DNA of 63,930 nt, counting the filler, from Sluysia triapertura (taxonomy: Eukaryota), in assembly GCA_046118255.1 (NCBI GenBank). It is 5 parts of 5 records of this genome, joined end to end, with 100 filler letters (N's around TTAATTAATTAA, not from the genome) between each part and the next. Parts side by side here need not be neighbours in the genome. Positions count along the whole stretch, not along the records: positions 1 to 12,272 come from JBJNIA010124079.1; positions 12,373 to 25,151 come from JBJNIA010082588.1; positions 25,252 to 39,618 come from JBJNIA010262284.1; positions 39,719 to 51,389 come from JBJNIA010181804.1; positions 51,490 to 63,930 come from JBJNIA010109202.1. One strand, written 5' to 3'. Below, one piece after another: positions 1 to 59,495 of the stretch. The notes under the pieces are model-generated. The model saw only the letters and a list, made by a program, of their open reading frames with translations, was not told the origin of the DNA and made no database searches. Every line of letters begins with the position of its first letter. Within the stretch, counting starts at the first letter, position 1. The position numbers were made by a program, and so were the translations under genes.

Positions 1-335
1 CTATTATTATCACCATTTTATTATCATTATTTCTCATTTTTGTGTTTGTAATTATGAGCATTTTTATTATCAGTATAAATCGATAAATCAGAAATAATTA
101 GTTTTTTTAAAATTTTATACATCAAACATTTTGTATTTTAAACTAAAGTTTCAACAAGTCACATTTTAATTACCTCGGTCAATTTCTATCGATGTTACTA
201 GCTCAGTAACATTGCCACCCATATTATTATCGCCGTCTACACTCATTACATACATTACTATTTTATGACTGAGTCATCGATGCTGTCATATGTGACAGCC
301 ATACATTAATTCTGACTTGTTTAGGTGTCCAATCA
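1..335 (+). promoter_or_regulatory. 3' part of the repeated LTR-like/promoter module (truncated by window start)
   Basis: TTA-rich tract 1-70, TGTCA-tatg-TGACA 284-297, CCAAT 329-333; same order as in the other copies. Confidence 0.5.
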
Positions 336-354
336 CATGAGAGCAGACTGTTTA

Positions 355-1545
355 TGAGTAATGAAGAAATAAAAATTATTTTTATTTGTGGAAAAGTATA
401 ATAAAATTTTTATCATTGCTCAATCTAAAAACAATTCTTGATGTTTACAGTAATACTTACTTATGAATTTGGTGGTTCACAATATTATTATTAACGTAGC
501 ATCCCGGCAATAGACATGGAAAAAAACATTTAGTTCTCCATTATATATGTTATTCAAATATACTGTACTCGACTTTGGTGAAAAAGATAATTTAAAAATT
601 GGTTATTTTGATAACGGCAAGCAAATAAAATACAGTAGATTTGAAGACGGATGTGATGTATTACAATATTTTAAAGACCAAATAATTATTCATTAAATAT
701 GAAATTTGTTAATCTAAAGTTAACTACAAATAAAAAATTAGTTTTTGGTGGTGTGTCTCATGAATTATTTAAGGTACTACCGAAAATTATAAGCTTTTTG
801 AATTATGAAATTAATGAAATCTATGTTAGATTAGTACAAGTACAAAATATTAGTACAAGAAGTTTAACTGCACGATTTTATCCATCTCAATCGAAAGAAA
901 TTACTATTATTTGTAAAAACAACAAAAAATTGTATTTTCAGGTTTAAATCAAGCCTATTCGTTGAATTACAAAATGATAAAGGAAGTATTGATAGATTAA
1001 TAGTATTGATAGATTAATTATAACAGTTGATGGTCAAGTTATTCAAATATCTATTAATGTATTTCTAACGGCTCACAAATTAGTAGATGTTGATTCATTT
1101 GTCATGACAAATAAAGTATCATCATTAAAGACAGACTTGTCGAATCAAAGATCTAAATAAATCCACAGAATTATGCTAATGAATACAAACGGTACAAAAT
1201 GGCTCTTTGTTTATATAAAACTACCAATACTGGCTAATGTTCCATATATGGCAAGAATTGCAGATATTGCCATGGAATTTATGAATTCATAGATGTTCTT
1301 AGTTATCCAGCAAATTTTAATGACTATTATGATAGAATCAAATCTCTTTTATCAAGCTTGGCAATCATACCTGACGTACATAATTTTTCTATTAGTGCTG
1401 TTAATGTTCTCAATAACAGTCGTGCTAATACTCCATCTGATCGAGTGATACAAGAAGAGACAAAAGTAATTATGAATTTTTTTGAGGTTTATATTGATTT
1501 AAAACATTTCATACTTTTATATCTTTTTAGACAAACATTTGAATG
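355..1545 (+). pseudogene. Degraded TIS11/ZFP36-like CCCH zinc-finger gene (module cargo)
   Basis: 1190-1276 translates RYKMALCLYKTTNTG*CSIYGKNCRYCHG (C-x10-C-x6-C-x3-H with an RYK..LC lead-in). Many stops and frameshifts. Possible 44-nt GT-AG intron at 1487-1530. Outer boundaries approximate. Confidence 0.65.
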
Positions 1546-2408
1546 TTTATCAAGGCATAATCAGAATTTAACAAAACGATTTGTAAAGATCTTTGTTTTT
1601 TGTGTAAACCTAAGTAAAATAGATAGTTTACGTTGTTACTTTTATTTTCTGTTAGAATTTAATAATTTTAAGTTAAATTTTGTAATAAAGTTTCTAATCA
1701 AAGATAATTGTAACAGTAATTTTCACTTTTTAATAAGATTTCTTAACAAAAGTAAATTTATTTTATTTGTTATTTCAATAAAGAATAATATAAATTATAT
1801 TATGAACATCATCATACCACATTATTGTTATTACCATTACACTTATCACTATCATTACTTATTGTTATTAATCATTATTTTATTAATCATTATTAATCAT
1901 TATTTTCATATTTTCAGACCTGCGATTTATTCCTGCACATTTACAAATTTATTATCAAATTTCTTAATTTAATTTTGATAACAAAATCTATTCGCCACTA
2001 ATCTAAAAACAAACTAGTAAGTTTTATTAAATTGCAAGTTAGATTTCACTCATTGAGTGCAAATCATAAAATCCACTCAAATTCTCTTTCAAAAAGATTT
2101 TAAAATATTAGTTGTGCAATGGGTGGAAACAGTTGATCTTATTAAATGTCTTAAAATATTTATTAAAAATTGTACAAAATCCATTAATGCTTAAAATATT
2201 ATATTGAAATTCGAAATTACTATTATAAAGTTTATATAAATGACTTAAGGTCCATTATCATCGAAATCAAAAGACCAAACACAGTAAACTAATATCTATT
2301 ATACACTTTCCTAAAATATAAAATGTGAAACAACAACGAAAATTTAACAGTTTAGACATATTATAATAAGAATAGAAAGGATATTTAACTTAGAATGTAC
2401 TTTATTGA

Positions 2409-2849
2409 TTAGATTAAATTAACTTCACGACAATGTTTCGAGAAAAAAATAAAAGATAATTTACCACTTTCTACTCTTGCACTTGAAACACATTTTCCGG
2501 ATTTTGCACTTTGAATCCGGCAATTTGTGATTTCATCATTAACACATATCCGACCAAATTCACGTCCTAGAAGATCTTCTTGTATCATAATTAACAACTT
2601 GGTTAGGAATCCTTCGACATCGCTAAACATGTTTCTGATATAGGTCAATAAATTAATTGAATATAAGCAAGGAGATATAGGTATGATAACTTCACATTGA
2701 CCGCTATATCTTCGCATTTGCTTAATGGGCATTTGAAATTTAAATCCAAATACGATCTTCAAGACTTGTACCGTTGAACAGTGCCTGTATAATCGAATTT
2801 GAATAGCAACACCTCGTGGCATTGGATGTACTAAAAGAAGGGAAATCAA
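2409..2849 (-). CDS. Unknown ORF or pseudogene, possibly module cargo
   Basis: 146-codon ORF with higher GC than background; lies downstream of a GT-rich segment ending GGTGGCAACA (3865); no family recognised. Confidence 0.3.
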   Translation of the reverse strand: MISLLLVHPMPRGVAIQIRLYRHCSTVQVLKIVFGFKFQMPIKQMRRYSGQCEVIIPISPCLYSINLLTYIRNMFSDVEGFLTKLLIMIQEDLLGREFGRICVNDEITNCRIQSAKSGKCVSSARVESGKLSFIFFSKHCREVNLI

Positions 2850-5800
2850 CTTCGCATCGGTTATTGAATTATTTATATTATTTGAATTTCATTAAAAAAT
2901 AGAAATATTTTATTCAATAATTTACAATAAATTAAAATATATTTCAAACTCCTATCATCAAATCACGCTAAATTTGAACATAATTATCATTCATTTATTT
3001 GTTTGTATGACGACATATCATATCTTTATTTTGATTCGAAACGTGTTTTGTGTGCATGCTCATACTGAAAATACACAGAAAATATTTGGTATGACATTCC
3101 AGCATTTTTGATGGATTTCAAGTTAATATTTACTTTCGAATATAAATCAGTAACACTAATTAATCAAAATTAATACTAAGGCAAAATGTCACGGTAGGTC
3201 CGGGTGTTCATTTTCGTGGAAACAATGTAAGGTAACTTTACTTCATTTTAACGAACAATGTAATTCCGTATGACATGACACAGCATTATCTCAAATAAAC
3301 ATCTTCTTCATTTAGCGGACGTGAAGTTAAAATCGATTATTTCCTTAAGAGAAGAAACTGAAATAATATTAAAAATAACAAAGCTGTGTAGCGCTGTGAC
3401 AATTGTGTGTTATTTGTTAAAGTCACATTTTTAATAAATACCAACATTGCATTTTATAAAATAAATCATTTTTATAATTTTATGGTTCCTAATGGCGATC
3501 GTGAGGACAAGAACGACACCGTAAAAAAGGAAAGTTTAATATTAACATATTTGGTTATTATGATTTTGATATAATTAATATTTGATATTATAGTGAAATT
3601 TTATAGTTTTATAATTTTATGATTTGTAAATTAAATTGTATTGGGTATAATGAATTGGTAATGTGTAAGGTGAGTTTGACGTAAAACAAATGTCTTTGTT
3701 GCTGAATGGTAATAAATTGTTATTGTAACTTGAATGTAATTTGTTGTAGGGTTTGAAATCTATATTGACTGTATCGAAATGACTGTATTAAAATGTTTTG
3801 CATATAAATTGTGCATGGCTTTAGGTATGAAATTATTTATGAGTTTATGTGTGAAGGTGGCAACAAGAAATATCGTGCATGGCTGTAACACCACAAGTTG
3901 ATAAAAATTAAAGGCTAAAAAAGGCTTTAATTTTAAATTCAGTATGATCAATTAAATTCTTGTAAGGTAAAGTTGATTTATCGAGCAAAAGGAAATGGAT
4001 TTTTGGTACTTTAATAATTTTTAGACATTAATTTATTTTTACTTTATTCAATTTACTTTATCCTAATGGATCTTATCAATTCTATTTACTCAATGATACA
4101 TTTTTAGTGGTATTTTATTTATTGAAATCAATGGATGTGGTATTTTTAGAAATAATGAATTTTTAATTAATTTATTACTAAGGGATTTACGGATATTTTA
4201 ACTATAAAGCAAATAAAACATATTTAGTCTCATAAGACTTCTTTAGCAACGATCCAACAAAATATATCCAAATATTACAAATTTGTGTTCCTGCTTGATT
4301 CGTGCTGATATAATCATATGTGTAGTGTTCCTGCTATGTTCGTACCGTTTCTGTTTATTTCGTTACTTGCAGATCGGCGATACTTGGCCTTTTTGTAAAA
4401 GATCCCTACGTTTTATTAAATAAGTTTTTATCTCATTTAAGTAAGGTATAACCTTCGTACTTAAAATTAAATTACTCTGACGCTAGTTTAAGCCAGTAAT
4501 AAAACAATCTTTAAATTATTTTGAAAAATTTATTAGGTTTGAAACTCTTAATAAAACAACTTTCTCTTTTTACTGTATTTTAAAAATTTCTTGTAATTAA
4601 TTTTTATTGTGCTCCTTTATTAATCCTTAGTTTTTGCAAGCAATTTTTATAACAGTAACATTTGTAAATAATAAATTGTTCTTTTTAGTTATGTTTTACT
4701 ATAACTTTATTGAATTATAGATTGTAAAATCAGAATAAACTTCAAAGCATAAATTATGGCTAAATTACACATTATATAAGAGTGCCATAAGTATAAGCTA
4801 TCATTTGACGTTACAAGTAAAAAATCATTATAGAATCTTCGAATAGGACTTATCATGATAAATTAGCTCACACAAGTCAAAGAAAACCAATAGGTACTTA
4901 TTTTTAGTATAAAATATAAATCTTATACTATGGGCAAACCCACACAAAATAATTTGCACATAGGCAATTTTTATATTTTACATAAAACATAGTATACATG
5001 TTGATTGTTGTATTTAATAAAAAGTTGGTAAACGTAGACTATGTTGAAACGAAAACATTTATATTAACTTCAAAATCTTAAAGCATAAGTTAAGTGCATA
5101 AATTATAACGTAAATTTCCATTTATAGAATTAAGATCCTCTCTTAACGTAACTATACAGAAGTTAAAGTAAATAAAGTAAATTGAAGAATAAAATATTAA
5201 AGTCAAAATTTACGTTAAGATTTGTCATTTATAGATATAGGAACGCCAACTCTATGTAATAAACCATTTACTGCTAAAATTTATTTTGCTGTAGATTAAA
5301 AATAAAGAAAACCACAACATTTCAATAGCTTTCAAAGTTTTTTATTTTTATCATTTTTCTCTTAATTATATTCAAGTGCACAATTTTTTGAGATTAGATG
5401 TCATATTCAATGTCTGGCTTGTTCAAAAATTTCATAAATACTCCGAACTGAGAATGTAGCTCTTTGATTAGGTGTCTTAGAGAATATAATGTAATTATAA
5501 ACTTATACTCATACTTCTTTTTCTTATTATTATTATTATTGTGTAATATCAAACCTATTTATATTTTTTTCATTTTAAGTTCATAGTAAATATCTTTTGT
5601 TCATATTTATGAGTTTCTATTCTACAAATCATAATTTATTTAGCAAACTATTTTAGTAAATTAGTAAATACAATCATTTTTATTTTTATTTCCAAAAACA
5701 TATATCTAGTTTCAGAAATATAACAAAGAATTCCTTCGTTTTCTAGCATCACTATAAAAATTTTATTAATATTCTATTTTTTAAAAATTATATATTAAAT

Positions 5801-5982
5801 TTTCTAAAATTCTTAGATATAAACTTAGCATATAGTACAAATTGAGAATATTTATTTAAAAATTATTAAAATTTTAAAATTTTTAAAAAAATTAGAAATT
5901 ATTTAGAAATTATATATATATATTTAGATTAATGAAATATTTTATTTAATTTTATCAACATAAAAACTACCTTTAATAGATT

Positions 5983-6557: not shown

Positions 6558-7649
6558 GTAAGTTTTACTTTACAATATTTAATTCTAAGCGTTTCAAGAA
6601 GCATACTCAGTAATTATAATAAATTAACGCCAATAAATTAAATTTGATATTTTGTGGTAAAGTATGTTTAAAGTTTGATTTAAATTTACTGGAGATGATT
6701 TAGCTAATACTTGAGATCTATTTCGCAGAAGTACGCAAGGAAGTTAGGACAAAAACATTTTAGAATTTGAAAATGCTAAAATAATTTTCTACTAAATAAA
6801 TCAAAAGTTTACACATTCTTAATTCCACCTTTACATATAAAATCAAAAGTACACAAGCTCCGAATCTTTGTCTCTGTTCATTTCGAGTAAAGTGTAATGT
6901 GTGTTTCTAAAATGTATAAATATCTTTATTTGAATAGTCAAACTTTTGCAATTATTGAAAATTGTTTGTGAAATAAAATCCTTTATAGCTCAGTCTTTCA
7001 ACTATTTCATCTAAATTTAATTGTACCTAGAAATATCTGATGAAAGATATAGAAGTGCTTTATTAGAACTTTGAATATTTAAATTTAGACTTTTAATCCA
7101 AACTTTCTCCTTAGTCTCACTGTATAAAACAAATTATGATTTCACTAAATTTATTGAGGATAAAACAAACTAAAGTACAGTAATGATAATACATAAAAAG
7201 GAAAAATAGTAAACAAACCACTCGTAATGTAATTAAAATTCTTAATATTTTAATATTAATATTAATTATGATATTACTCGTCTAGTTATCACATTATTTA
7301 AATGTGACCTAAAATATTCGAGATTCAAGTTTGTTAGTACCGTTATTGCCCAGATATCTATCGACATGACCCAAAAAAAAGTCCGTAATGCTACTTTTTG
7401 AGGTATATGTGATGTTATTGCTAATTTATGGGGTTTTGAATTAGATTCGATGGCATGAGTGTTTATTTGCATTACCGAATTAAAAATTTGTGCCAGAGGC
7501 GTTTTAGTATATAATTATAGTACTTCATTCAAAATATTTGTATCAATATTAGCCGATTTAGGAGTTTATGGTTTAAAGTGATTTTTATTATCTTTATAAC
7601 GTGGCTTATTTTATTAAAAATTACATGGATTAAATTTCAGTTAATTTTA

Positions 7650-8847
7650 TTGTCTTAATTTATTGTCATTGTTTTTAATTTTTGTTCTTTTATTAATTTT
7701 ATCTTAAAAAATGCAAAGTAAAAAAACTAAATTTATTGTAGCATAAACTAAATATATAACGTAAACTAAAGTTTATTACATTTTTTAAAATTTTGGTTTG
7801 ATAGCTCATGTTCTGGCACGTTATGACTGTCTGTGTTAGATTCTCCCTTAATAATAAATACAAATATAAAAAATCAGTAATTGATAGGTAAATATTTAAA
7901 ATTACTTCGACTAAATTATTTAAGCAACAATCGGGCTTAATATTGTTCGTAGTACCAGCAACTAATTGATCAATACAGATGTTCGCAAAAGAATTGATTT
8001 GTTGATCTAAGATAAATTGCTTCGAAGATGTGTAAATAGGGACAATATACGCCAAATTTTAGACATAAGCCGGCTTCATTTAACTGAGATGGACATTGAA
8101 ACGTCATTTCTTTGATACAAGAATTTCCACTGGAATTATCTTGTTTAATTTTGTAAACATTATTGTTGATAATATTTATATAATTAGAGATGCATTCGCA
8201 TATATAGATTTTATTGAATTTTTGATATTCAATATTTTTCATGAAATACATTTGGCCTGTTGTAGTGGACTCCACTAAGAGCTGTTTCAGTTCATAAACA
8301 CAAAATTTCTTTCACATCTCGAATGATTTTATCAAACACAGTTTCAGTTAAACACGTCACTAGCATGCCGTAAAATTGTTCAAGAACATGTAAACTTTTA
8401 TAATCTGATCTAAGGTCACGAAACCCTTGACAAACACCATCAACTTCATCTATAAGAATCGGTGTATGTTTTCGAGAATACTTTCATAAAATTTTTTCTC
8501 TTTGCAGCTTTTTCTGAAATTGCCAAGATAAGCTTAAATTGTAGTTGTTCAATTGAGTTTGTTTGTAAGACTTTATAAACTTCAGTTAGACTTTTTGTTG
8601 CACGATTTGAGTCTAAAACTCTACATGTGATCTCAGAATTTTTTGAATAACTTATTTGATCTTGTACTAATGGTGTGATTGATAATAAGACAATTGTAAC
8701 TTTTCCTTGATTAGGCTTATCTTTAATACGAACAAGCTTTAACTCATCATTATTAATAATTTCAATATGATTTTTAGTGTTAATAATTACATCTTTCAAT
8801 CTTTTAACTTCATTGTGACATTTACTAATTCTTTGTTGATTATTCAT
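7650..8847 (-). pseudogene. Degraded CCCH zinc-finger gene (cargo of module A)
   Basis: Fragmented ORFs 8446-8847, 7970-8275 and 7699-8055; CPSQLNEAGLCLKFGVYCPYLH = C-x9-C-x6-C-x3-H; candidate 3' intron 7703-7779. Confidence 0.6.
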
Positions 8848-9063
8848 TTACGAATTAAGTGATTAGATAATTAAAGATACTTGTTTTTATTTACTTTTGT
8901 TTTTAATTTTTTTGCTAACAGTTCGTTCATTTTTTATTTTATAATACTGCCAATTTTGTTTAGTTGGTTTTTCACTATTAACTTTTGTTCTCTTTGTCCT
9001 GTTAAAATCAAAATTTTTAATTGTTATTACTGCGAATCTATTTTTACGCAGCAACTCACGAAT

Positions 9064-9241
9064 GATTGGACGTCCAATCAGGTTATACCAAATATGATCT
9101 GAATAGTCTGTCATCGGTAGACAGATCAATTAAAGCTAATTCAATATTTCATATTTGCTGTCTACCGATGACAGATAATGAATGAACTTTGGTAATTAGG
9201 CCGACTAAAATACTGGTGACGAAATTAAAATAAATAATTGC

Positions 9242-9292
<51 letters not shown>

Positions 9293-9944
9293 CGAAATAA
9301 TTAGATAAAATAAAATAATAATATTAAAATTAGACAAAACAAAATGCATAAACTTTGTATTTCTTTTGCTTACATAATCTTTCTTTTGTAAAATCTTTTG
9401 TTCTGAACATATTTTCTGAAAAGCAATAAAAATATGAATTTAAAATGTTTTAGTGGAATTAAAAATGTAAATTAATGGTTTGAGTGAAAGTATGATTTAG
9501 ATGTTGAAATTGTGGATTTGAATGCTTTAAATGAATTTTTAAATGAGCATTGATGATTTTGAATGTAATTGTAGTTTGGATATTCTAAGCTTGTGAATAA
9601 ACATGTTCTGAATAAACTTTAAATTGTAGATTGATGGTTTTAGATGTATTTGTAGTTGTGGTGTTGTGAATTATATGTTAAAATGTTTTAAATAAAATTT
9701 AATGTGCGTTAATGGCTTTGAATATAGACGTGATTTTGGTATTAAAATGAGGATAGTTCTCGTGGATCTGATGAAACAAAATATAAAAAGAAGGTTTTAA
9801 TACGTTCTAAAAGGTAGTTGTATAATGTTAACTAATGTAATTATTATTGTAATGTCATGGAATTATGAGTAGAAAATGTTTTTAATGGATTATTAAATGT
9901 AAATTATTAAAATAAAATTTTAATACATTGTGTTAGCCACAACA
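9064..9944 (-). mobile_element. LTR-like promoter module, copy A
   Basis: Minus-strand start TGTTGTGGCTAACA; ATGCATAAACTT at 9344; (TAA)n 9243-9290; 18-bp perfect inverted repeat 9107-9175; perfect palindrome GATTGGACGTCCAATC 9064-9079. Confidence 0.6.
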
Positions 9945-10192: not shown

Positions 10193-10991
10193 TAAAATTT
10201 AGTTGTAGATAATTATTTTGGTTTAGCTATTACTTATTGAGCATGTAAACGAAAAGCTTTAATTGATAATTAATTTCATATATAATTATTAATTTAAGTT
10301 TTGATTGTGTTTATTAGGCGGGCTGACCCTTAGATATTTTGCAAGTATAAGTAAGAAAGAAAAAACATCTTTGATAATTAAGGCTATGTCTAAATCAGAA
10401 AATTTAAAATTTATAATGATTTTTAGGATGGAGTTATTCTGTTTCATAAATAACTTACGAATTATTTTAAAGATTCGTATAAGTAATTTTCAAAGTAACT
10501 TGGGTCATATTTATTAAATTAATCGAAATCTAGTCCATACAATGATGATAAATTAAACAACTAAATAATTTCATAACAATCGAACTACTCAAATCTTGAT
10601 ATTTAACGTTAAAACCAAAATCTAATTTCAATCTCTAGTATCGTATTTTAACTTCTTATTTTGGTATATTTATGAGGGTGCTATAACCATAGTTTATTTC
10701 GAAATTGATACTTTTTCAAATTATTGTAAAATAAAGTATAATTTCTTCAATAAATAATGGATGCGTAACGCCTTTTTATTGTCGACATTATCGACGGCGT
10801 ATTTGCTGGTTTGCTTGATTTGGAAATACTAAGACTGGAAATAATATTTTCGAATATCTATTCGAGATTATTCCATCAATGAGAATGCAGTAAACTCAAA
10901 TTTAATTAAGAACAAAGTCGTCAAAAGAAGTGGAAGCAATAAACTATTCTTTTAAACTATTTCGAACAATATTTTAATTTATTTCATAATA

Positions 10992-11454
10992 CAGTGTCGT
11001 TACGAAATAGAATACTTTTGATTAGGAAATGTAAAACATTTTATTAAAATGTATAAAAAGTACAATAATACAAGGATATTCTTAATTTCCTAATCGAGAA
11101 ATTAATACTTCTTAATGAATATTCAATCTTATGACTATTTATCGCCAAGATATTTTGAGTCTCTTGGCATCCAATAGAATTATTTATAAATTCATTCCAC
11201 CTTAAACGCCTCAGCTGAATCCAATTGAGGAATTTTTTGGAGTATTAAGGCTAGATATAGGCCAACAAATGCAATAGAAATTCAGAATACTGTTGATAAA
11301 GTGTTGGGCAGCTATAATGAAAATTTAATTCCATTTGATAACAAGCAACTTTTTGTGTTGTGTCAAAATTTTGTATCCGGAGATTATTTTTATATTTCCT
11401 AATGAAAAATTTTACGTTTTGTAATCAAAAGTTTTATGTTTCGTAATAACACTG
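10992..11454 (+). mobile_element. IS630-Tc1/mariner deletion derivative
   Basis: Imperfect ~32-bp TIRs (CAGTGTCGTTACGAAA.../...TTTCGTAATAACACTG) flanked by TA; internal IPP*TPQLNPIEEFF motif near 11190-11240. Confidence 0.8.
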
Positions 11455-11519
11455 TAATTATTGCGCAATAACATATTTGATAAACTTTTCGATTCAGTTT
11501 CGTGGTGCAAAATTTTCAG

Positions 11520-11815
11520 TTTCAAAATATTGTCGCTACCGCCAGGCCGCTCCCTCCACTCGAGTGAATACATGACATTCATTTTAAATTACCCTGCCAA
11601 CGAATCTCTCATCTTTAAGTTGAAGGTGTACAAAACAGTGTACAACGGATCTGTCAACACATTATTGGAGGTGTTCGAGATCGCGGGAAATTCGATTTAC
11701 ACAAATCAGAGTATTATTGGAAGCCACATAACGGTGGGCTGCACTATCGGCTACTTCATCGGATATACCTTGGTGAAATTGATTAACTCAACGTTCTTAA
11801 AAGTAATATCGTGTT
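11520..11815 (+). CDS. Probable isolated exon of an unknown gene
   Basis: Open frame with elevated GC, TTTTCAG acceptor at 11519 and GTTAGT donor near 11813; no family recognised. Confidence 0.3.
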
Positions 11816-11934: not shown

Positions 11935-12272
11935 AAAGAAATATAATATACATCAATGATGCTTTAAGTGTAATCGAATAATATGAATCTAAATACCACA
12001 TAATATGTGTTGATGACGGGCAAATATACACTGAATATATACCAAATATAAAATGGTTTGGAAATAAATACTTGAAAATAATCAATGAAGAAAAGTCAGA
12101 ATTTATAATCATCAGTAATAAAAATAGCTAAAACACCAAAATAAATGAAACAAAGTTAATAGTCGGTGGTAAGATACACTAGATGCGAAGCAAAAAGTAC
12201 GAAATATAGGTTGTTATATGGATTCAAAAATGAATATGGAAGAAAATATTAATTGTATTGTTAAAAAGTGTA
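11935..12272 (+). mobile_element. L2/CR1-group non-LTR RT remnant
   Basis: YINDALSVIE...YH..VDD (decayed YADD motif); homologous to 21920-22175 in the opposite orientation. Confidence 0.65.
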
Positions 12273-12372
12273 NNNNNNNNNNNNNNNNNNNNNNNNNNNN
12301 NNNNNNNNNNNNNNNNTTAATTAATTAANNNNNNNNNNNNNNNNNNNNNNNNNNNNNNNNNNNNNNNNNNNN
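12273..12372. other. Assembly linker/gap
   Basis: N44-TTAATTAATTAA-N44; stops in all six frames. Confidence 0.99.
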
Positions 12373-12756
12373 AAAGATTTTATTTCTCAATTATTTTAAA
12401 GATATTATACAATTTATAAGGTTACTAAAGGATCTCAAATGCCTATCGATATTTCAAGAATACCTAAAGGTTACTAAGGTCTTCAATAATCTAAAGTTCT
12501 AAGATTCAAAAGGTACCTTAATGCTTGCAAAGGTTTTTCAAGTCCATCTCAAGCTTTCATAAGATCTCAAACCCTTATATAGGTCTTTGGAACTCTAAGG
12601 TATTCTTTAACTGTTAACATTATTATAGATATTTTTACTCTCATGATTCTTATTCCACTAATGTTTACCATGTTCAATCCATCACTGTGTATCAGCTTTT
12701 CCCTAATTTTATATGTTTTCATTCATCTCCAGATCCACAGTTGGGCAATCCCAACA
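12373..12756 (-). repeat. Solo-LTR-like repeat, inverted copy of 21127-21520
   Basis: Shares TGTTGGGAT..CCCAACTGTGGA, GACCTATATAAGG (TATA) and TTGAGAAATAAAATC with the 21.1-kb copy. Confidence 0.6.
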
Positions 12757-14274
12757 TTATTATTATTAACTTTGAACTCTGAGAAATAATTATTATTATT
12801 TGAAACTTTATTATCATTTAAACTTTTTTGAACTTATTATTACTTTTTAGACTTTGAATTCTGACAATATAAACTTATGGCATTTGTTACAGTGGTTTAA
12901 ATGCGCATTTTTTCTCTAACGAGTTGAAAGAATTCACATTGAAAGGATTTCATTGAATATAGCGATCTGATACAAATAAACAGAATCACCGCGAATACTG
13001 ACTTTATCTTTTAAAGTAAAATTACGATAAACAAATTATTGTTGATAGCGCTTTGCTTAATTATCTTTAAAGGTTGTAATATAAAATTCATAAGTAAAAT
13101 AGTTATCTGCAGATATAAATAAATTATCTTTAAAATGAAAATTTAAACTGATTTGATCAAATTTCACTAGCTACTTAATACAACACTTAAGAGACCATTA
13201 GAAGCTTAGGTACCATTAGAAAATGTTTTTTATTAAGGATGGGTTACTCGAATTCAGAATAAAAATACAATTACTAAAATTTATAAACAAAAAGAAATAA
13301 ACTTCACATAAATTAACTTTAATTATTGTTTTATTTTGTAGAATCAATATTTTATTTTCATCTAATAAAATTTAAAATTCTAAATGAATTTTCAGGCCAA
13401 ATTCACGTTACTACTTGCTCCGATATCTCAAATTTTGATCTCAACATTTTTGTTATTCAAAATTAAAATGAATAAACAAATAGATTCACATAAACTAAGT
13501 GACTTTAAAAATTTCACATGACAAGAATGTTTCTTTATAATATAAGTCCATGATAATATTTATCGCTCTTACGTGATACTTTGAAATGACTTCATTCATT
13601 AATATATCTAAACTAATTACTGGTCACCGTTTGATCGACCCACTAAAATAGGTTTCGACGCTGGTTGATGTAAGTACTTTCTTTTTTTAATATCATCTAA
13701 TCCAAGTAATGTAATCATACTTTATATTTCACACATTTTAAACTTGTATGATTTGATTACTCATAAAATTAAAAATTTCATATAAATTAAAACGAAAATA
13801 ATAATAAAATTATACAATAAAATTTATAATAGTAAAAATAATATAAATTAAATATTCGATATTAATAATTAAAAACAATCAAATAATAATAAAAATATTT
13901 ATGCTTAAATGAAATTGGAAAAACTACTTGAGGTGCTAAAGTGAACGAAAAGGTGAAGGTAAGACAATAAATGATTGAATGTGGATTAATAGTTTTATGC
14001 GAATGATGAAAAGACGTGTTATCGTATTTGAGATGATGAATTAGGGTTTTGAATCACCAGACTGTTGTGTGTAATTTTGCCTTATTTTAGTTGTTTCTAT
14101 CATTGTTTTCGTTCATTTTTTGTGTTTGTTTCATATTTCAAAACATGTTAATATGCCTCTTTTAAAACAACGAAAGATATTATTTTATATTATTTAAAAC
14201 TTATAATTGTTGGGATATAGGCTTAAGGTGCCATTTGGTATAATTGAATATAGTCATCTAAAAATTGTTAGACT

Positions 14275-14331
14275 GGGCTGATAGCTCAGTGGTAGAGCAC
14301 TAGGCCCCGGGTTCGATCCCCGGTCAGTCCA
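14275..14331 (+). tRNA. tRNA-Ala-like gene or pseudogene lacking the anticodon arm (57 nt)
   Basis: Acceptor GGGCTGA/TCAGTCC+A with G3:U70; D-arm GCTC-AGTGGTA-GAGC; T-arm CCGGG-TTCGATC-CCCGG; only CTAGGCC between the arms; TTTT directly downstream. Confidence 0.75.
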
Positions 14332-25251: not shown

Positions 25252-25396
25252 ATGGTATTGTTTCTGCTACTACTTTAGCGGATAGATTAAGCAAACTAGG
25301 TACAGTTGTATCAAACTTCGTTGGAATATAAGTATAACATCTTCTATGTTTTGTGTAGACGTTAGAAATGACTGGACTAGAGTTATGCCCCTTCAT
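25252..25396 (-). CDS. N-terminus of a ZSWIM8/ZSWIM4-6-like BC-box protein, truncated by the gap (cargo of module B)
   Basis: VPSLLNLSAKVVAETIP(T..) vs recalled ZSWIM8 PLVELSAKQVAFHIPF; next codon begins with T, compatible with Phe. Confidence 0.6.
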
Positions 25397-25629
25397 TGAA
25401 GTAAGATTCTGTTTTAAAAAGTAATGAAAATTTGTTTCGTAAAATCGGTTAATAATTAAAATGTATTGATTAATTTTTCAATTCACACAATATGTCTGCC
25501 AAGTTATTTTTAAAATCTGTATGGTTGGCTAATAAATTTTTTCAATTTTTATTGACTAATTATTTCTCGTCGATTAATGGTGTAATAAATTACCCTCTTG
25601 TTTTGGTCGTACTGTGCAAATAATGGTAA

Positions 25630-26959
25630 TTAATGGTTGGTTAATTTCTTTGTACACCAATGGCTGTCAAATAAAATTTTGTATTTTTCATTTTGTGTGT
25701 CTATTCTGGCTGCTAAAATCATCCAATTATCATTTACTAAAAATTTTATTGTGTTGACTAATTAATTTTGCTCGTTACGAATAATCATGTGTTCACTAAT
25801 TCTGCGTCTGAATTTTTTAGTGCATACACATGTCTGTCAGATGTATTAGTTATTTCAAAACCTGCTATGTATACAAAACATTGGGTGACATTGATTTTCC
25901 AGTAGATGATTAACAATTTATTACATCATGTACTTTAAAGTACATTTGATTATGCATAAGTGGAGTAATAATAATAATAATATTAACTTTAATGATGAGT
26001 AATAACATAATAATAAAAGAAGATAATAATAAGAGTGATAATAATATACTTAATAGTAGTAAGAATAATAAAAGGTTATAATAATAATGATTATAAGATG
26101 TCAATAATAGGAATTAGTAGGTGAAATTACATAAATCTTTGATATCTCCTTAACTACACGATCTTGCTTTAATCTTTTTAGCTTTTCTTACATATAAATG
26201 GAAAAGGGAAATGAAAAGAGATATTTGTACTGTGAAGGAACAACGGCAATTGAATGAAAGGTGTCTTGTTTGGTTGTTGCTTCACAGTATGATTATAAAT
26301 TGCTTTAGAGTAGTTGGAGACGTCATTGGAAGCTGTGTAATGTTTATGTTTAAATGAAATGAAGAGTGTTGAACATAATTTGTTGACATTGATTAATGTT
26401 TTGTAATTTGAAAAGAAGGTCTATGCATTAGATTTGGAGTGTTTATTTGAAAGGTTGAAGTTAAATTGATTTTATAAAGGTTATTGCGAAATAATTTTGT
26501 ATAAGTTGTAGTGTTATTGAAATGGTTGTAGGTGATGGGTATGATTGTGTGAAATGGATTTTGAATGTTATTATTGCTTATTGTTTTAGGTGTGATGATC
26601 TTTGTTTCTGGAATGGTTAACAATGACGCTTGGATATTGTTGTCTCCGTGATTTATGAAATTTGTGTTGTGGTTCTGATTTAATTTAACGGAGTGTTTGA
26701 TGAATGGATGTTATGAATTGTTTGGAGTGAATGTAATGATTTATTAGTTGTGAATGTTTGAGAAAGTATTTAATGAGTGCGTGCCTTGAGTTGTTGACGT
26801 GAATGTGAGAGTTTAATGGGTTGGAATGTTAAGATATGGATTGATTTATTGTTATATGTAGTTGTGAAGTGTGAGTTGGAAAAGTGTTATGGTTGTGCGT
26901 GTTGTTTTATGTGATGAGTTTTGTTTTATTTTTTTTAAGTTAAGGGGTTGGCCACTACA
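25630..26959 (-). mobile_element. LTR-like promoter module, copy B
   Basis: Minus-strand start TGTAGTGGCCAACC; TTACATAAATCTT at 26127; degenerate (TAA)n 25965-26095; CCAATGGCTGTCAAAT at 25657; body 26400-26570 aligns by eye with copy D 45700-45870. Confidence 0.6.
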
Positions 26960-28095
26960 GTTTATTAAAATTAAAACAAATTTTGTATTAATTAAGAATG
27001 AATTGGTTATCATCTATGATCTTATTAAAATTTACATATAAATAAAAATAAATATTTAAAATAAATAAATCGATGAAATTATTTGCGCTTTTAATGTAGG
27101 TATATTTTTTAATAACGGGAATTTATAGCACTAATTTAACATCGAGATAATATTAGAAGTAGGATTTAATTCATTAATATTTAAGTAACTTGATAATGGG
27201 GAATTAATATTGTAAATATTGAAGAAATCTGTTAATGATGAATTAATTTTAAGGTTAGAATGAAAGTTAAAGAAAGCTGGTAATGATGGATTAATTTTGA
27301 CGTAAGGACTGAGTGATATATAAGTGATTGTGATTATGTAGAAGTGAACTGAAGAACATATGATAGTGCAACATCTTTATTTCTACAAATAACTTTAGAG
27401 GTTAAATTTATATGAATAAAGCTTGATAGCTGTCTTTATCATCATGTACTTTCAATAAAGGGTCTCATGTTAGATAATAGAACGGCCATCGTACTTTTCG
27501 TAGTATTGTCGAAAATTTAAATTTTATCTTAGATTTAAAATAATTTAAACTCGAATCGAACATAAAATCATTTATTTTAAGATCCAATAATTATACTTAT
27601 ATATAAAATAAGGTAAACAAAACATGAGACATTTGTATCGCAAAAATAAAAATTACAAAATTCATCTGCTTTTAACTTGCACGAAATTAATCTCAATAGT
27701 TCTGAAAATTCTTTCTCGATAAAACATATCTTTCCGGAATTCACCACATCACTTTCATTTAATAAGGATGGTAAAACTTATGTATTAAACTTTAAATTAT
27801 ATATTATTTATAAACTGTTTGGGGTATTGTGATTAACTTTATATTTAATTATTTGAATTATATTAATTGATTTATTTAATATTTTTAAGAAAATATGAAA
27901 ATAACGCACGACACATGTTACAGAAAAGGATTGTAGAACTACTAAAAATTTGTTTAATAACATATAAATTGAATAATAACAAATGTTTGTTTACGTTTGA
28001 AAAGGCTACGATCCATACCTTACTTAGTTTTCTAAAAAAAGATACAAAAATATAATCATTATCATCATCAAATACTAATTGTAAGATAAAATAGT

Positions 28096-28662
28096 TTACC
28101 TTAAAAAACTTTCGTTATTATAGAAGGGTCGTAGTATATCGTCAACTCCATGTACGTATGTACAGCGTGCTCCGTTTTTGATACGTTGACCAGTATACGA
28201 TGTACCACACAAACATTGTCCCGTTTTGTTGTAAAATAAATGATTAAGATGTACCATATCTTCAGTATTCGGATGAACATACTGGAAATCTATTTTATTG
28301 GGACAAGATTCCGTGTTTTCATAATATGAAGTACAACAAATGTCAGGTTTGTAATTAGATGTATTATCAACACGAATTTTTGATTTCGTTATAAATTTTA
28401 ATTCATTAGAAATCATATTCAAGAATTGGTTAACTCGATCATATGACTTAATTCGATCAATTTTTGAATTAGAATGAGACTCATTTATACTACAATCAAC
28501 ATCATCTAAATTTGTGTATTTTATCTCTTGATAAATATCTGACTTGATTTCTTGGACTAAATCATTTGTTTTTAACAAGAAACATTCATCATTATCTAAA
28601 TCTCCTTTAACATCATAAATTTTTATTTCATCTTCTAAGAATTTGTTTATCATAAACGACAT
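28096..28662 (-). CDS. Tandem CCCH (TIS11-like) zinc-finger protein, degenerate (cargo of module C)
   Basis: NYKPDICCTSYYENTESCPNKIDFQYVHP and FYNKTGQC...KNGARCTYVHGVDDILRP; donor at 28099, candidate intron 28032-28099. Confidence 0.65.
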   Translation of the reverse strand: MSFMINKFLEDEIKIYDVKGDLDNDECFLLKTNDLVQEIKSDIYQEIKYTNLDDVDCSINESHSNSKIDRIKSYDRVNQFLNMISNELKFITKSKIRVDNTSNYKPDICCTSYYENTESCPNKIDFQYVHPNTEDMVHLNHLFYNKTGQCLCGTSYTGQRIKNGARCTYVHGVDDILRPFYNNESFLR

Positions 28663-28797
28663 TAAGATGTATTAAAATTAAATTTTAAAAATTTTCAATT
28701 TACTAAAGTAATTGTATTTTATTTTGTGTGTTGCCTAAATTAGTTATACATTGCTTTATTTAGCAATTTAGTTGAGTTGGCAATGAAAAAGGTTATG

Positions 28798-29019
28798 GTT
28801 GGTTGACCAATAACAGAGCCCAGCTCAAAAACAATAAATTCTTGTCGCTTATTTTAATAATGATCACACCATATTTTAATAATGAAAACTGTCAACCGAT
28901 GACATTATAAACTACATAATTGAAATTCTGTCTAAGCGGACAACCAATATAATTAAATAATTAAATAAATCGAATGATGATAATGATAATGAAAAATGAT
29001 AATAAATAATGTAATAACG

Positions 29020-29059
<40 letters not shown>

Positions 29060-29522
29060 TGAAAGTAATAAATAATAAAATGAAAATAAAACAAAATGAA
29101 AATCTTTGCATAAATTTATTTCTGTTCTAACATATTTCTTTTCTGTAAAAATCTGTAAAAATCTGTAAAAATGTTTCTTTCTTAAAAATTTGTTCTTCGT
29201 CCTCTATCCTTATTCATTGTTTGATTTCGAAGAGAAAGTATATTCTTTATAATTCTTCGTTCTTTTAATATTTCTATTGCTTAACAGATCTTTTATAGTT
29301 ATTGCATAACGTTGAAATAGTTCAGTTTGAAGGTGATGTATTTGATATCCCTGTTGTGAATTGATTGTTGAAGGAAAAGTAGATGTGGTAAAATAAAAAT
29401 GTAAAAAGAAATTAAAGAAATTCCATTTACAACACTATTTATGGTTTTAATGTTGTATAATATGTGAACTTTAGTGTGTTGTGATGTATTTACAATTTTG
29501 AATGATAAAGTTGGCCACCACA
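28798..29522 (-). mobile_element. LTR-like promoter module, copy C
   Basis: Minus-strand start TGTGGTGGCCAAC; TGCATAAATTTATT at 29107; (TAA)n; TGTCA-ACCGA-TGACA 28890-28904; GTTGG-TTGA-CCAAT; body aligns with copy F. Confidence 0.65.
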
Positions 29523-54130: not shown

Positions 54131-54413
54131 AAATTTTGCTTCCCTTAATATCATTTCTTGGTTATGCAAATGCTTTTCCTAACAGTGCAATTTAGTAATG
54201 TGTACATTCCATTAAAAGTTAGAATTGAATTTCGCATTAAATTTAACTGAAATTTTTTAAAGTATTTATATGAGTATTCAAACCTTTTAAAATGTATTTT
54301 AAATTTTATTAAAATTAACAAAGTGAATGAGAATTTTGGCTTACAACTAACTAATGAACAAATATAAACATCAAAGAATCTATTAAAATTTTCTAAAAAC
54401 ATAATTTTAATGT

Positions 54414-55235
54414 TTAGATATTGTATTCTGCATATATTTTCTGTTTGAGTCCGTGTTTCACTGCCTGAAGAAAAATCATAATTATTGTAATATTATTATT
54501 GTAATAAAAGGTAATCATTACTTTAAGGACTTTCATTGGCAACCCTTTTAAAGTACGTGTATCTATCCACAAATTAGCACTCTTGAACAGCTCATTAATT
54601 TCCGATTCGTTGACCTTATGCGTATATCGACACTTTACTCCGTTCTTCAAACAAATTCCATGATCATCTGCAGAGTATGAGCAAAAGGCGATGACTTTAG
54701 TTAAATAATCTTCCGTGGTGATCAGCATTGTTACGTTGAATTTTATAATCGTCTTCATCAGCATATTGTTTGGAATTGCGATCATCATCTTTATATTGTT
54801 TAACATATTTCCTGACATCTTTATTCTCTTTGATATTATCATCATCATGGTTATCTTTATAGTGCTTGGAATAATCGTAACCATCTTCATAATGGTAGAA
54901 ATAATTATGACCATCTTTAACTTTATAATTATCAACATAATTGTTATCCTCTCTACAATGGTTAACGTAATCATTATCACTTTTATAATGCTCGAAATAA
55001 TTGTTATCATCTTTATCTTTGTGGTTCTTGACATAATTATTATCGTCTATAGGATTTCAACATATTCGTTATCGTTTTCATAATGCTCGAGACAATGGTT
55101 ATCATTCTTATCTTTATGATTCTTAACACAATTTTTGTCATCTTTATCTTTATGGTATTCACGATCATCACCACCATCTTTAAGTTCTTTGGGTTTAACA
55201 TCATCAACTTCGTAGTACTTAAAATCGTATAACAT
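54414..55235 (-). pseudogene. CCCH zinc-finger gene with a D/N/H/K/Y-rich repetitive N-terminus, frameshifted (cargo of module E)
   Basis: Repeats such as DDNNYVKNHKDKDDNNYFEHY, then CSYSADDHGICLKNGVKCRYTH (C-x9-C-x6-C-x3-H); candidate intron 54465-54521. Confidence 0.65.
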
Positions 55236-55299
55236 TTAAAATCGATTATAATTAACAGTACAAAGAATTGCGTGATATAAAATTTTAGAATCAAAATTA

Positions 55300-55838
55300 A
55301 AACTTTGGAATGTAAGCGTTAAAATGAGTGATGATAGTGTTTAAATATTAGGATTGAATAGTACCAGATGTAAATTTGTGGTGTTTAATTTATTTTTGAG
55401 GTATTTGTTGATTCATTACGAGTGTGAATGTGATTGAATTGTTTACGATGAAAGAATGCAACATAAAATATTTTGAATGAATTTTTAATATACTTTAATG
55501 ATTTAAAACGTTATTGTGATTCGGATGTTGCGAGGTGTCGAATAAATATTCTCCATGGATCGCTTAATGTGAATTGATGATATTCTTTGTTATGAGATTG
55601 TAGGTTTGAAATATTTTGAAAAGTGAGTGTTTATTTTGGTGTTTAGGAAGAGAAATAAGATATAAAAACGGTGAATTTTATAAGATTGTTGTATGTTGTT
55701 GAAAATATGGTTTTAGTTATGTTGCGTTAGTTTAAATGGATTTAAATATGTGTAATGTATATTTGAAAGTTTATAAGATTTTAATATGTTTGAGGTAGAA
55801 TTTTTGTGAAATTTAAGTTTAGTGAGTTGGCCACCACA
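55300..55838 (-). mobile_element. LTR-like module, copy E (internally deleted)
   Basis: Minus-strand start TGTGGTGGCCAAC; GT-rich body on the plus strand; (TAA)n and hairpin absent. Confidence 0.55.
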
Positions 55839-55903
55839 TGCAAAATATATGATGAGTCGGTTCGCCTAATATACACATTTTATATCAATTCTGGAGACGT
55901 GTT

Positions 55904-56250
55904 TGTAGTGGCACACTTGTATACATTATTTTGTTGTTAAATCCACAAACACACTTCACTTCAAACTCATTCATGAACGTTTCATCCATCTTAAAACATC
56001 ATCATATCTCGCACAATTTAAAAAATTCACGCGACCAGATTATTAACATACAAAAGATTTATTATTTATAAATTAATTATAACCTTTCAGATATCACTTT
56101 CTTCGTTCTCCTCGGCAGAATCTCTCACATTTTAGTTTACGTGTATGCTTCTATTCTAAAAGAAAATATTTGTTTTTAATGTCAATTTTAAAAAAATCGA
56201 ATATCACAAATTTTGACAGATTTAAATATGCGAAATAAACTGCATGCATT
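55904..56250 (+). mobile_element. LTR-like module, plus-strand copy E'
   Basis: Starts TGTAGTGGCACAC, followed by a C/A-rich body; right boundary approximate. Confidence 0.45.
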
Positions 56251-56468
56251 TTTTCGTATTCGTTAAGATAAGTTTAATTTAGTTATCATTGTGAAAATTA
56301 TAATATATTTATTTTAATGGTATTTTTGATGAAGATGGATTAAGTTGAAACAAAGCTTAAAAGTTTACATTATTCATATTTGTAGAAAAAATCTTTTGTT
56401 GATTATTTCATTTTTTAATTTTTGTTTTAATAATAATCAAATTTAAATAAAATACTGTTTATGAAAAT

Positions 56469-56990
56469 TTGGTACGCCATTTAAAGGATCATAAAACATT
56501 GAAATTAATGGAATTTGGCAGATTTAATCGTTCAGGTGATTTTAAATCATTTAATAAAGAAGAAACGTCAATCTCAACATTTTTCCAGCACATTGTACTT
56601 AGAGAAGCGCCTTCATTGAAACGTTTAACCGATGGAACTATTGTGTTTCATTACTCCAAATTTGATGATAAAAAAGATAATAATCTTACTAGTATTATTT
56701 CTAGTCATCTCAAGGAGCAAGTTGTTTTCAAGAAATAAAACATCATTAAATTAAGCTTGTGGAAAGAATTTCGAATTAATTTCGTAAATTTGATGAAATA
56801 TATGGACGATTTGAAGGATGATTTCTATCCTATATGTCAACCGAAAGTATCAACAGATCCATTTGAATCTGATGTGAAATTTTTGAAAGGCGAGGATTAA
56901 GTAGAAGACGATAGTGGGAATGATTATGATGATGCAACGAAATATAGAGACGATGTGAAAAATGGTTATCTTATATTTCAGTTAAAAGTG
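56469..56990 (+). pseudogene. BC-box/Cullin-box-like protein remnant (cargo of E')
   Basis: EAPSLKRLTDGTIVFHY...LTSIISSHLKEQV; acidic tail broken by stops. Confidence 0.35.
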
Positions 56991-57559
56991 TCTTGCTTAA
57001 TATGTATAAATAAAGCGAGTAAATCGCTGGAAGATACTGGTAAGTGCTTCACAATGTATGAAGTACTTTATTACATGAGTTAAAGTCACGTGAACCTACT
57101 TTCCCAATGTCCATTCTTTGTATAAACCAAATGGCATTTTGAGATGAAAAATTCGGCACACATAAAGAAACATCAACTAAATCAGTACGGTTTCTGTTGT
57201 CATCGGCGTTTGACTCTAATTTGAACGTGAGCCGCTCTTCAACATTCATGGGTATCATTAACCAAATGATTAATTGAATCGATTCACAACATTGCTCCAG
57301 ATTCTAAAATCACGTAGGCAATGGCTATGACGCAATGCAGACTGGTCACTTTGGTAGTATTAAATTCTGACAGCCTTTATTTAAAGCATTATTTAAATAT
57401 TTAAATAATAAAACTGAATTATTTAATATACATGATCTTATTAAAAAATTGTAGTTGTAAAACATAAAACATATATTGACTAAAACTAGAATTTTCAATT
57501 AGATAATAGAGATACGATAAATAAAGTTGTTTAATTTCGTTTGAATATGCCACCGAAAA

Positions 57560-58585
57560 TATATTACTTATTTTTCTAAATAACAATAAGAACATATAAA
57601 TATAATCATAAAATAAAATTAAGAAAATGTAATGATTTACCTTAAGTATATCAAAACTTTGAGGACTGAACAAAAAGTGGTTTTGTTGGTTATTGGTAAG
57701 TGCATGACAATTGATGGAAGTTTTTCCAAACTCTGTTATTGTTCTTAAACTTAATAGTAAATTGTAGATTCGTTTACCATGATCATCGACATATGGCATG
57801 GGATAAACAGAGCGTTGGAGATCAAAAGGACCATGTGAATAGATAATTTATAGCCGTATTGGAGAGATTCTCCTGCTTCTGTTGACAGTGAGTACAGTGA
57901 AGTTTTATAATATCTTGGATTAAATTTGTTTTCACTGTTTCTGATCTTGAAACGTGCGTATTGTTGATTGATTTCATTTGTCATACTATTTGATTGTGAA
58001 GGGATATCAGTAGCTGGTAGAACTTGGTTATTATTACTTAATCTGATAAAAGTATTAGGCGTTAGCGTTGAAGTTGAAATTGAATGATTAATACTTGCTA
58101 CGTTTCTAAGGACATCGTGACCAATATTTGAACAAAAAACATCAGGTAAAATTGCTGCGATACTATCATTAATATTAATTGTTGTTAATGAACTGTGTTT
58201 ATAAAAAGGATATTGAAGTTGTTGCTTGATTGTGCAGCATTCATATTCTACACTAACATCTTTCTTTCTTTTAGTTAATTCATCATTATACTCAACAGCC
58301 TTTTGTAGCAATTTTGAAAGGAATGCCTCATTATCTCTCAAAGTTTGAATGCACTCATATAATTCTGTATAACTACTTTTGATGCTATCTGTTCGCTTTA
58401 TTTCTAACTGAATAAAATAATCCTTTCTAAATCTATTTTCAAATGATAAATAATCTTGTATATTTGAGCTTAAGTAAGTATGATCTTGATGATGTTCATC
58501 GCAGTCATAATAATATTCATAATCATAATCATAATTTTCATAATCGTCGTCACGAGTAGTTATTTTTTATAAATTTTGCATGACA
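57560..58585 (-). pseudogene. TIS11/ZFP36-like CCCH pseudogene (cargo of module F)
   Basis: KFNPRYYKTSL(Y)SLSTEAGE(S)LQYGYK, then after a frameshift GPFDLQR; Cys positions are TAC/TCT, one change from TGC/TGT; D/Y-rich N-terminus; candidate intron 57576-57640. Confidence 0.65.
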
Positions 58586-58755
58586 TTTACAATCAAAGTT
58601 CTTTTTGAAGTATATCTTTTTAAATCTAAATTTTGTAACAATGATCTTTTTGAAATTATAAGTAAATATCAATTAAGTGAGAAGATTAAATTTGATGAGC
58701 TCTATTAATGAATGTCTTTTTCATTAATTTGAGTAAAAAAATAATTTAGTATTCA

Positions 58756-59495
58756 GATTGGCTGTCAAATCAAAGTGTTACAATAGTGGGTTTTGATGAC
58801 AATTTTTAATTTATTGAAATCTGTCAATAGTTGACAGGTATAAATCAACCAAATTAAAAATATATACGCTATTGACAGTTCATATGATTAATGAAATGAC
58901 AATGATCTGGAAAATGGTAATTAAAATGTAATTATAATAATGATAATGATAATGATAAAATTAATAATAATAAAAATGAGAATAATAATAATAGCAGATA
59001 ACAAAAATGATAATAAAATAAAATAAAACGCATAAATCTTTTAACACATTCTTCTATTTGAAAATTTTCTTTATCATTAAACTAATAATAATGAATCTTT
59101 TAAAACGTGTTCTTTCTCTAAACCTATCTAGTTATGTATTTAATAGTAATTTTTCATATCTTATAAATTTGTTCTTGATGTTCTTTTAATGTTTCGGTTG
59201 CTATTCTATTTTTATGTATTACAAAGCGTTAAAGTAGTTCAGTTTAAAATTGTTCAATTTGATATTCCTGTTGATAATTGGTTATTGAAAGAAGAATATA
59301 TGTCATGATAAAAATATGAAGAATAAAAAATATAAAAAGAGATTAGTGAATTTGGAGATTTTAAAGAAATTCCATTTAGTTTAGTGTTTTAAAATGTAAA
59401 TTTAATGATTTTTGATGTTATTAATGTTGTCGAAATGTAAACTTAAAAGCATTTTGATATATTTACAATTTTGGGTAATAAGGTTGGCCACCAGA
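58756..59495 (-). mobile_element. LTR-like promoter module, copy F
   Basis: Minus-strand start TCTGGTGGCCAACC; ACGCATAAATCTT at 59028; (TAA/TGA)n; TGTCA-ATAGT-TGACA 58822-58836; GATTGGCTGTCAAATC at 58756. Confidence 0.65.

Follow-up and report, generated by a model that had tools for sequence, protein, structure and literature searches.

Gene-carrying transposable elements, possibly solo long terminal repeats, with cargo partly derived from the host gene unkempt

Solo long terminal repeats (LTRs) of Ty3/Gypsy retrotransposons are unpaired units without terminal inverted repeats (TIRs) that start with TGTNR, have a promoter-like interior, are flanked by 5-bp target site duplications (TSDs) and can be nested (10.1101/137141; PMC2836005). 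TGTNR is the left-end pattern of Gypsy (PMC2836005), and solo LTRs with 5-bp TSDs and non-TGCA ends in which only the first T is fixed have been described (10.1101/137141). The transposable elements analysed here, ten units (A to G, E', K and W0) in a 63,930-nt stretch of eukaryotic DNA (the window; 25% GC, four gaps), share these features, whereas their right ends are mostly AA, an intron-containing protein gene is carried per unit, and a parent element was not seen. In the plant elements Grande, RIRE2 and Retand an accessory open reading frame (ORF) is likewise kept across families, and its antisense orientation would be shared if the polarity proposed below holds; those ORFs, however, are situated between pol and the 3' LTR, and host homologues of them are lacking (PMC7264820, PMC11963269), whereas here the gene is host-derived and lies inside the LTR-like unit. 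Several host-gene pieces are fused within one element in animal LTR-mediated retrocopies (PMC5131818) and in maize Bs1 (cited in PMC7264820), but there the fusion is internal, between the LTR parts, and usually present in few copies, whereas it is multicopy across families here. The giant Gypsy element Burro of planarians and the bdelloid ORF3s (PMC6431247, PMC5408684) also come from LTR lineages of invertebrates and encode host-like domains of regulatory or ubiquitin-pathway type; unlike here, these domains are found in internal ORFs. Finally, Ginger1 and Ginger2-TDD share the TGTNR end, TSDs of 4-5 bp, introns and host-like domains, but their TIRs of at least 40 bp (PMC2836005) have no counterpart in the elements of the window.

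An initial annotation of this window had described a dispersed LTR-like promoter module that always fronts a CCCH zinc-finger or BC-box gene. Our analysis, which also used one public run (X1), established that the units are a real, multicopy group of gene-carrying transposable elements (Table 1). The suggestion of a gene-carrying mobile unit, made in that annotation as one of two options, was therefore borne out by two ends, 5-bp TSDs, nesting and multicopy occurrence; that annotation had reported neither the second end nor the TSDs, nor that the units nest, contain introns and carry cargo of host origin. In C, D, E and F, a second, unlike end (...C[C/T]AAA) lies past the cargo and is followed by a repeat of the 5 bases that precede the left terminus. 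The TSDs of these four units thus fall within the 4-6 bp expected of a solo LTR, and tentative ones were assigned to E', G and A; at random sites, a 5-bp TSD after YYAAA arose in 1372 of 17268 trials (7.9%). No TIR was detected in any of the 7 units with two ends, and terminal direct repeats were at chance level in 6 of the 7, that of G being marginal and not terminal, which does not agree with the direct repeats at both ends of TRIM or LARD elements. The mapped elements cover about 30% of the window.

Table 1. Elements, cargo genes and associated features, with positions counted along the whole window.
Feature	Positions	Strand	Description
Element C	27818..29522	-	1705 bp, TG...AA, TSD CAGTT
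Element D	43652..46232	-	2581 bp, TG...AA, TSD TATTG; B family
Element E	54191..55838	-	1648 bp, TG...AA, TSD TTGCA; promoter block absent
Element F	57350..59495	-	2146 bp, TC...AA, TSD GTGAC; inside E'; C family
Element E'	55904..59824	+	own sequence about 1770 bp, split by F; TG...TA, TSD GTGTT; right end tentative
Element A	7298..9944	-	right end tentative; TSD ATAAT, AT-rich
Element G	2115..3895	-	1781 bp, TG...CA, TSD CAACT; right end tentative
Element B	25252..26959	-	cut by assembly gap
W0	1..1969	+	left end outside window; tract, palindrome 284-297, CCAAT; cargo broken, a CCCH remnant left in it
K	13700..14061	-	short copy; TC terminus, C/A body, TTA-like tract
Repeat Z, left piece (target of E')	55839..55903	+	resumes after 59829; loose ends and contig joint
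Promoter-like block of A (fullest)	8950..9290	-	(TTA)16, two TGTC-N-GACA palindromes, inverted CCAAT pair
C cargo	27875..28662	-	open 188-aa exon, GT-AG intron about 28034-28097, 53-aa tail exon
F cargo	57422..58566	-	broken: Max-like bHLH piece (E 0.01), degenerate remnants of unkempt, intron; tail exon homologous to the C tail exon
E cargo	54417..55235	-	broken: acidic repeats, unkempt finger 3 with all four ligands, intron, short tail
A cargo	7702..8847	-	broken: RECQ1 helicase piece, unkempt-like finger 3, intron, tail
D cargo	43851..45004	-	helical ORF of 133 aa, its start BC-box-like (unconfirmed); also a second ORF, an intron and a tail exon
E' cargo remnant	56505-56735	+	inside element E'
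B cargo	start 25396	-	BC-box-like motif (unconfirmed)
G ORF	2412-2822	-	open, 137 aa, orphan

All seven terminus strings quoted in the initial annotation were found in place. The pattern TGTRGTGGCCAAC, which was derived from the matches themselves, gave 6 matches at up to 2 mismatches (D needs 3) compared with 0.48 expected, a number that 0 of 100 shuffles reached. When each copy in turn was left out of the terminal profile, 4 of 8 were recovered. G (terminus at 3895) and K (terminus at 14061) are copies additional to those previously listed; neither cargo nor a second end was found in K. Left ends match TGTNR in 6 of 9 cases. C/A-rich bodies begin at the termini, with scores of 33-112 in B, D, E, A and G against a shuffle maximum of 14 and a weak signal in C, F and E', and a one-sided strand skew spans 200-750 bp of the units. 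The bodies had also been expected to align beyond composition bias, which held within families only (6 of 55 pairs beat shuffles) and failed across the other pairs. Pair z values of 23 for C-F, 19 for B-D and about 5 for A-E and A-D correspond to two strong families, C-F and B-D, and a weak one, A-E. C and F are homologous up to the very base that adjoins the TSD on either side, with unrelated flanks beyond. The bodies were rejected as coding sequence, codon periodicity being absent, as was a tRNA-like or hairpin structure at the TG end, where no fold is conserved (6 sequences, z -1.3 to 1.2); an Rfam search at the termini gave no match. Two more C/A-rich stretches, 34856-35042 (+) and 27144-27346 (-), lack the terminus motif and cannot be aligned to the element bodies.

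The X1 contigs, from a run that is possibly the source of the assembly and that was the single holder returned by a run search, with no RNA run listed, were mapped to positions 53450-60600 only. With 4116 contigs over 7151 bases (a maximum of 59 at any body column and of 39 in the E cargo), bodies and cargo are multicopy. The far end of E at 54191 coincides with a step in summed depth, which is not a copy number, from 4.85 to 501.7. The contig count drops to 2-5 past the first 170 bases of E', so that most related ends run into sequence less than 80% alike, or stop. As counted by eye, the loose ends of 27 contigs at 55900 agree in 20 of 30 positions with the DNA after the second GTGTT (59825), and a direct joint between 55903 and 59967 is present in two contigs; repeat Z is therefore interrupted by E', which in turn contains F. 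A single inverted-repeat element formed by E' and F was rejected because they do not share a TSD, and an end of E' at 58774 was rejected as well. Repeat Z itself (55839-55903, 59830-60130 and 48790-49090) is high-copy, has CTAG-bounded hairpins (2 matches, 0 expected) and is possibly Helitron-like.

The CCCH cargo is a fragment captured from the host gene unkempt and joined to pieces of other host genes. Residues 94-186 of the C cargo correspond to unkempt fingers 2-3, and the finger region is collinear with mouse or human unkempt (PDB 5ELH; 77 residues, E 1.4e-12). Among 1.84 billion representatives, 81 matches were obtained, all over this region and with 29-44% identity; the 5 that were checked were all unkempt, and none reached the first 78 residues of C. 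An unkempt profile gave 9e-22 for C and 2.4e-4 for E, and only 1.8-4.5 for A, W0 and F (F 4.5, W0 2.2). The CCCH cargo previously proposed for these units stands for C, which lies above the cut-off of Pfam zf-CCCH_UNK, and at lower strength for E and A (below it; A 0.0014), whereas F and W0 have only broken remnants recognised by eye, with weak scores. Compared with host unkempt (UNK; PDB 5ELH), the cargos hold one or two fingers, fingers 4-6 and the RING are absent, the N- and C-terminal parts are foreign and zinc ligands are lost in C; neither the six-finger architecture nor the C-terminal region was found in any of them. Unkempt fingers 1-3 prefer A/U-rich RNA (PMC12136788), and unkempt represses translation via CCR4-NOT by means of regions that are missing from the cargos (PMC11009413).

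Among the other host pieces, that of RECQ1 in A is split between two neighbouring frames (E 0.16 and 6.6e-5) and replaces an AAA+ assignment that was rejected, and W0 shows a weak match to the immunoglobulin-like domain of CFAP74 (E 0.001). A GT-AG intron of about 37-64 bases precedes the tail exon in A, C, D, E and F. Tail exons are homologous in C-F only, and a membrane-anchor tail common to all cargos was rejected on that account. Stops or frame shifts break the cargos of W0, A, E, E' and F, and most copies in the window are decaying. One X1 contig identical to the window spans the break of F; others differ from E in length within its cargo, and the breaks are therefore not common to all copies. 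The unkempt finger is kept in more than one family, which suggests that it is used by the element.

The word-index protein search upheld 0 of 13 candidates for C and 0 of 51 for D, exact look-up found 0 of 4 cargo ORFs, and the protein atlas held no usable match for D; for C, its best value was 0.87, to CCCH clusters including giant-virus ones, which we treat as a lead only. A metagenome pattern scan gave 10 loci (GC 43-59%) without the C/A body or similarity, which were taken as chance, and none of 22 pattern matches in viral contigs was confirmed. In PDB searches B, D and the second D ORF had no match, and G and E' had nothing under E 0.2; single-sequence models of D (predicted local distance difference test, pLDDT, 61) and G (pLDDT 46) gave no clear fold match.

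With regard to the BC-box proteins assigned to B, D and E', the pattern is present, at motif level and by eye against a consensus, and the model of D (pLDDT 61) has a helix at residues 9-18; no family, PDB or fold match was obtained. Neither type of cargo is carried by G or K, contrary to the statement that one of them is always present. A pairing of CCCH and BC-box cargo is not established: the BC-box proteins lack confirmation, two copies are free of both, and the CCCH component goes back to a single captured host gene, unkempt, combined with diverse fragments of other host genes. Outside the mapped elements, clusters of orphan, partly broken ORFs at 49098-50455, 60901-61728 and 47170-47560 may be cargo of other families.

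The ordered promoter-like block that had been reported for all full copies is complete in A, C and F and largely so in B, D and W0; E and E' lack the tract, the palindrome and the CCAAT pair, all of which are also absent from G. Taken singly, the AAGATTTATGC-like motif is unspecific (23 matches at 2 mismatches, common elsewhere in the window), the TGTCA-N-TGACA palindrome occurs at chance frequency across the window, and 4 of 13 perfect (TTA)n tracts are inside elements. TGACAG/CTGTCA half-sites numbered 12 in 1651 bp of promoter zones picked by eye, compared with 0.32 expected; they resemble TALE and NF-Y sites. On the opposite strand, A, B, C, D and F have AATAAA hexamers immediately ahead of the conserved motif, and the order of the motifs would fit U3-R-U5. 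The cargo lies inside a TSD-bounded element and is not its neighbour, so an LTR-derived promoter driving birth and death of host genes, the other option of the initial annotation, is not the best framing.

A fixed 5-bp TSD is the mark of an integrase or a DDE transposase. We give about an even chance to the elements being solo LTRs of a long-LTR retrotransposon lineage, probably read here on the opposite strand and carrying in U3 an accessory gene in antisense orientation. The solo-LTR anatomy follows from the single unit with two unlike ends, the absence of a TIR, the TGTNR start and the ordered promoter. In such a scheme, integrase would have inserted full elements and LTR-LTR recombination would then have removed gag-pol. 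The genomic RNA would be the opposite, G/U-rich strand, an assignment we favour slightly over its reverse, and the cargo would be antisense to it because introns are present: an antisense gene would keep its intron through reverse transcription and be copied along with each LTR. The unit would then run from a U3 that contains the antisense cargo gene, through a two-way CCAAT/TGACAG promoter, to an R region in which (TAA)n and AATAAA lie, and on to a G/U-rich U5 whose end is ...CCACCACA, with a final CA except in F. New host pieces may have been swapped in ahead of the retained unkempt finger, and the intact cargo is predicted to be an element accessory protein for A/U-rich RNA, possibly, as a guess, the element's own (UUA/UAA)n tract. 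In its most far-reaching form the proposal would make the LTR a gene-building cassette with TT...CA ends, in which an antisense, intron-protected U3 accessory gene and a two-way LTR promoter are combined with a retained unkempt finger or Elongin-BC adaptor motif, other host pieces are swapped in, each solo LTR is a promoter-plus-gene package and the finger binds RNA, either the UUA/UAA tract of the element itself or silencing RNAs of the host; we regard this whole as rather unlikely.

Several observations weigh against the solo-LTR interpretation. No full-length element or pair of units around gag-pol was found within the window, and neither a PBS nor a polypurine tract (PPT) occurs at any flank. 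In line with the initial annotation, no gag, reverse transcriptase or integrase was detected: there was no Pfam match to reverse transcriptase or integrase in the scanned ORFs (83 + 56 of 170 of at least 55 aa, plus sub-pieces). TG...CA ends are seen in G only, tentatively, while the ends are TG/TC...AA in C, D, E and F and TG...TA in E'; the four best-supported right ends are thus AA and not CA, TG...AA is not among the variants named in the accessible passages of 10.1101/137141, and F and K start with TC rather than TG. The end motif was picked after viewing C and F, it is also matched by E' at a rejected site, and A and G do not match it. The right ends of D and E' are weakly alike but out of register, which questions the end of E', and X1 loose ends next to the E terminus do not match the opposite flank of E. 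AATAAA is common in DNA of 25% GC. The C cargo retains 24 of 43 host-conserved residues and has lost one zinc-ligand Cys per finger. Moreover, genes that have been transduced mostly run in the same direction as gag-pol, and the extra ORFs described in the accessible part of PMC7264820 are outside the LTR.

Alternatively, the units may be non-autonomous cut-and-paste elements of Pack type, asymmetric at their ends and with no more than 6-8 bp of imperfect inverted sequence at the terminus, which were mobilised by a Gypsy-integrase-like or other DDE transposase and captured and shuffled cargo at the DNA level; we rate this possibility clearly below the solo LTR and still take it seriously. It fits the fixed 5-bp TSD, the two fixed ends and the chimeric host fragments, retains sense introns more simply, and gives a simpler account of the missing PBS/PPT or paired copy in 10 units; the terminal 8 bases match the inverted other end at 3-6 of 8 positions. 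It leaves the one-sided strand skew and the ordered promoter block unexplained, and a repeated subterminal motif common to both ends was not seen. TDD-4/5 give 5-bp TSDs, as here, and Ginger ends are TGTNR, to which the left ends conform in the proportion given above, the right ends reading TTTRG when inverted; against Ginger itself, whose TIRs are 40-270 bp long (PMC2836005), the units have none. The sharp ends, the TSDs, the nesting of F in E', the unrelated flanks and the chimeric, mostly broken cargo largely refute the view that the units are an ordinary family of host genes multiplied by segmental duplication and sharing a TALE/NF-Y-like promoter, which we hold to be highly improbable in spite of its introns, promoter-like motifs and the open ORFs in C, D and G. 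Pack-MULEs are similar in their chimeric cargo; they have long TIRs and a TSD of about 9 bp, neither of which was found. Helitrons were rejected too, since they lack TSDs and have TC...CTRR ends with a 3' hairpin, whereas TSDs are present here and a fold is absent at the conserved end.

Movement by target-primed reverse transcription, LINE-dependent (long interspersed nuclear element) or Penelope-like, seems improbable to us, although less so than the host gene family. It would be in line with the LINE relics of the window (by motif) and with stretch J, which shares the AATACCCAAA end and has 22-bp direct repeat flanks, and Penelope-like elements are reported to keep introns. Against it, the TSD is always 5 bp and both ends are fixed, truncation and a poly(A) tail are absent, and the TG end has no conserved fold; the variable TSD, 5' truncation and tail of non-LTR and Penelope-like elements were not found, stretch J being a separate exception. 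Stretch J (46749-47095, -; 350 bp) is C/A-rich, ends in AATACCCAAA like the right end of the elements and carries the 22-bp repeat on both flanks; it has no TG start and is weakly alike to part of the G body.

The extra genes of LTR elements have been described as internal and are lost on solo-LTR formation, whereas a gene inside the LTR would survive. If the solo-LTR interpretation is right, every insertion would leave behind both a chimeric gene and the promoter of that gene, a direct route to animal orphan genes; the LTR itself would then be a means of shuffling genes of the host, and the elements would offer a testable case of the recruitment of a host RNA regulator. If the Pack-type alternative holds instead, they would represent a TIR-less cargo transposon with 5-bp TSDs that fits no tested family. 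Under either, standard annotation would miss or mislabel the units. In the literature covered, which did not include most subscription papers or Repbase, we found no gene inside a solo LTR, no CCCH/unkempt cargo and no such ends.

Host genes in the window, for example those of sideroflexin and a CHORD protein, have short introns. The best matches of sideroflexin are 60-64% identical, many of them from flatworms, and its tree leaves the host unplaced, as a long-branch animal. Relics of other mobile elements include two of LINE ORF2 (39719-39976, +, and 22624-23046, -), without a matching Pfam hit and resembling L2/CR1 by motif, and a broken, higher-GC, Pfam-negative transposase-like relic (37642-38981, +) that is hAT-like. 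A Tc1-type helix-turn-helix fragment (17016-17297, +; E 0.002) lies between exons of the CHORD gene, and a degenerate dehydrogenase E1 fragment (19824-20159, +) is apparently a pseudogene. A short tRNA-like sequence at 14275-14331 (Rfam 48.5 bits, not called by ARAGORN), with a second partial copy at about 42325-42400, is a possible head of a short interspersed nuclear element. Orphan, higher-GC ORF pieces at 10986-11814 are accompanied by a 75-bp inverted repeat (10986-11059 / 11387-11461), and another dispersed repeat, in inverted orientation at 11946-12757 and 21126-22172, spans an assembly gap.

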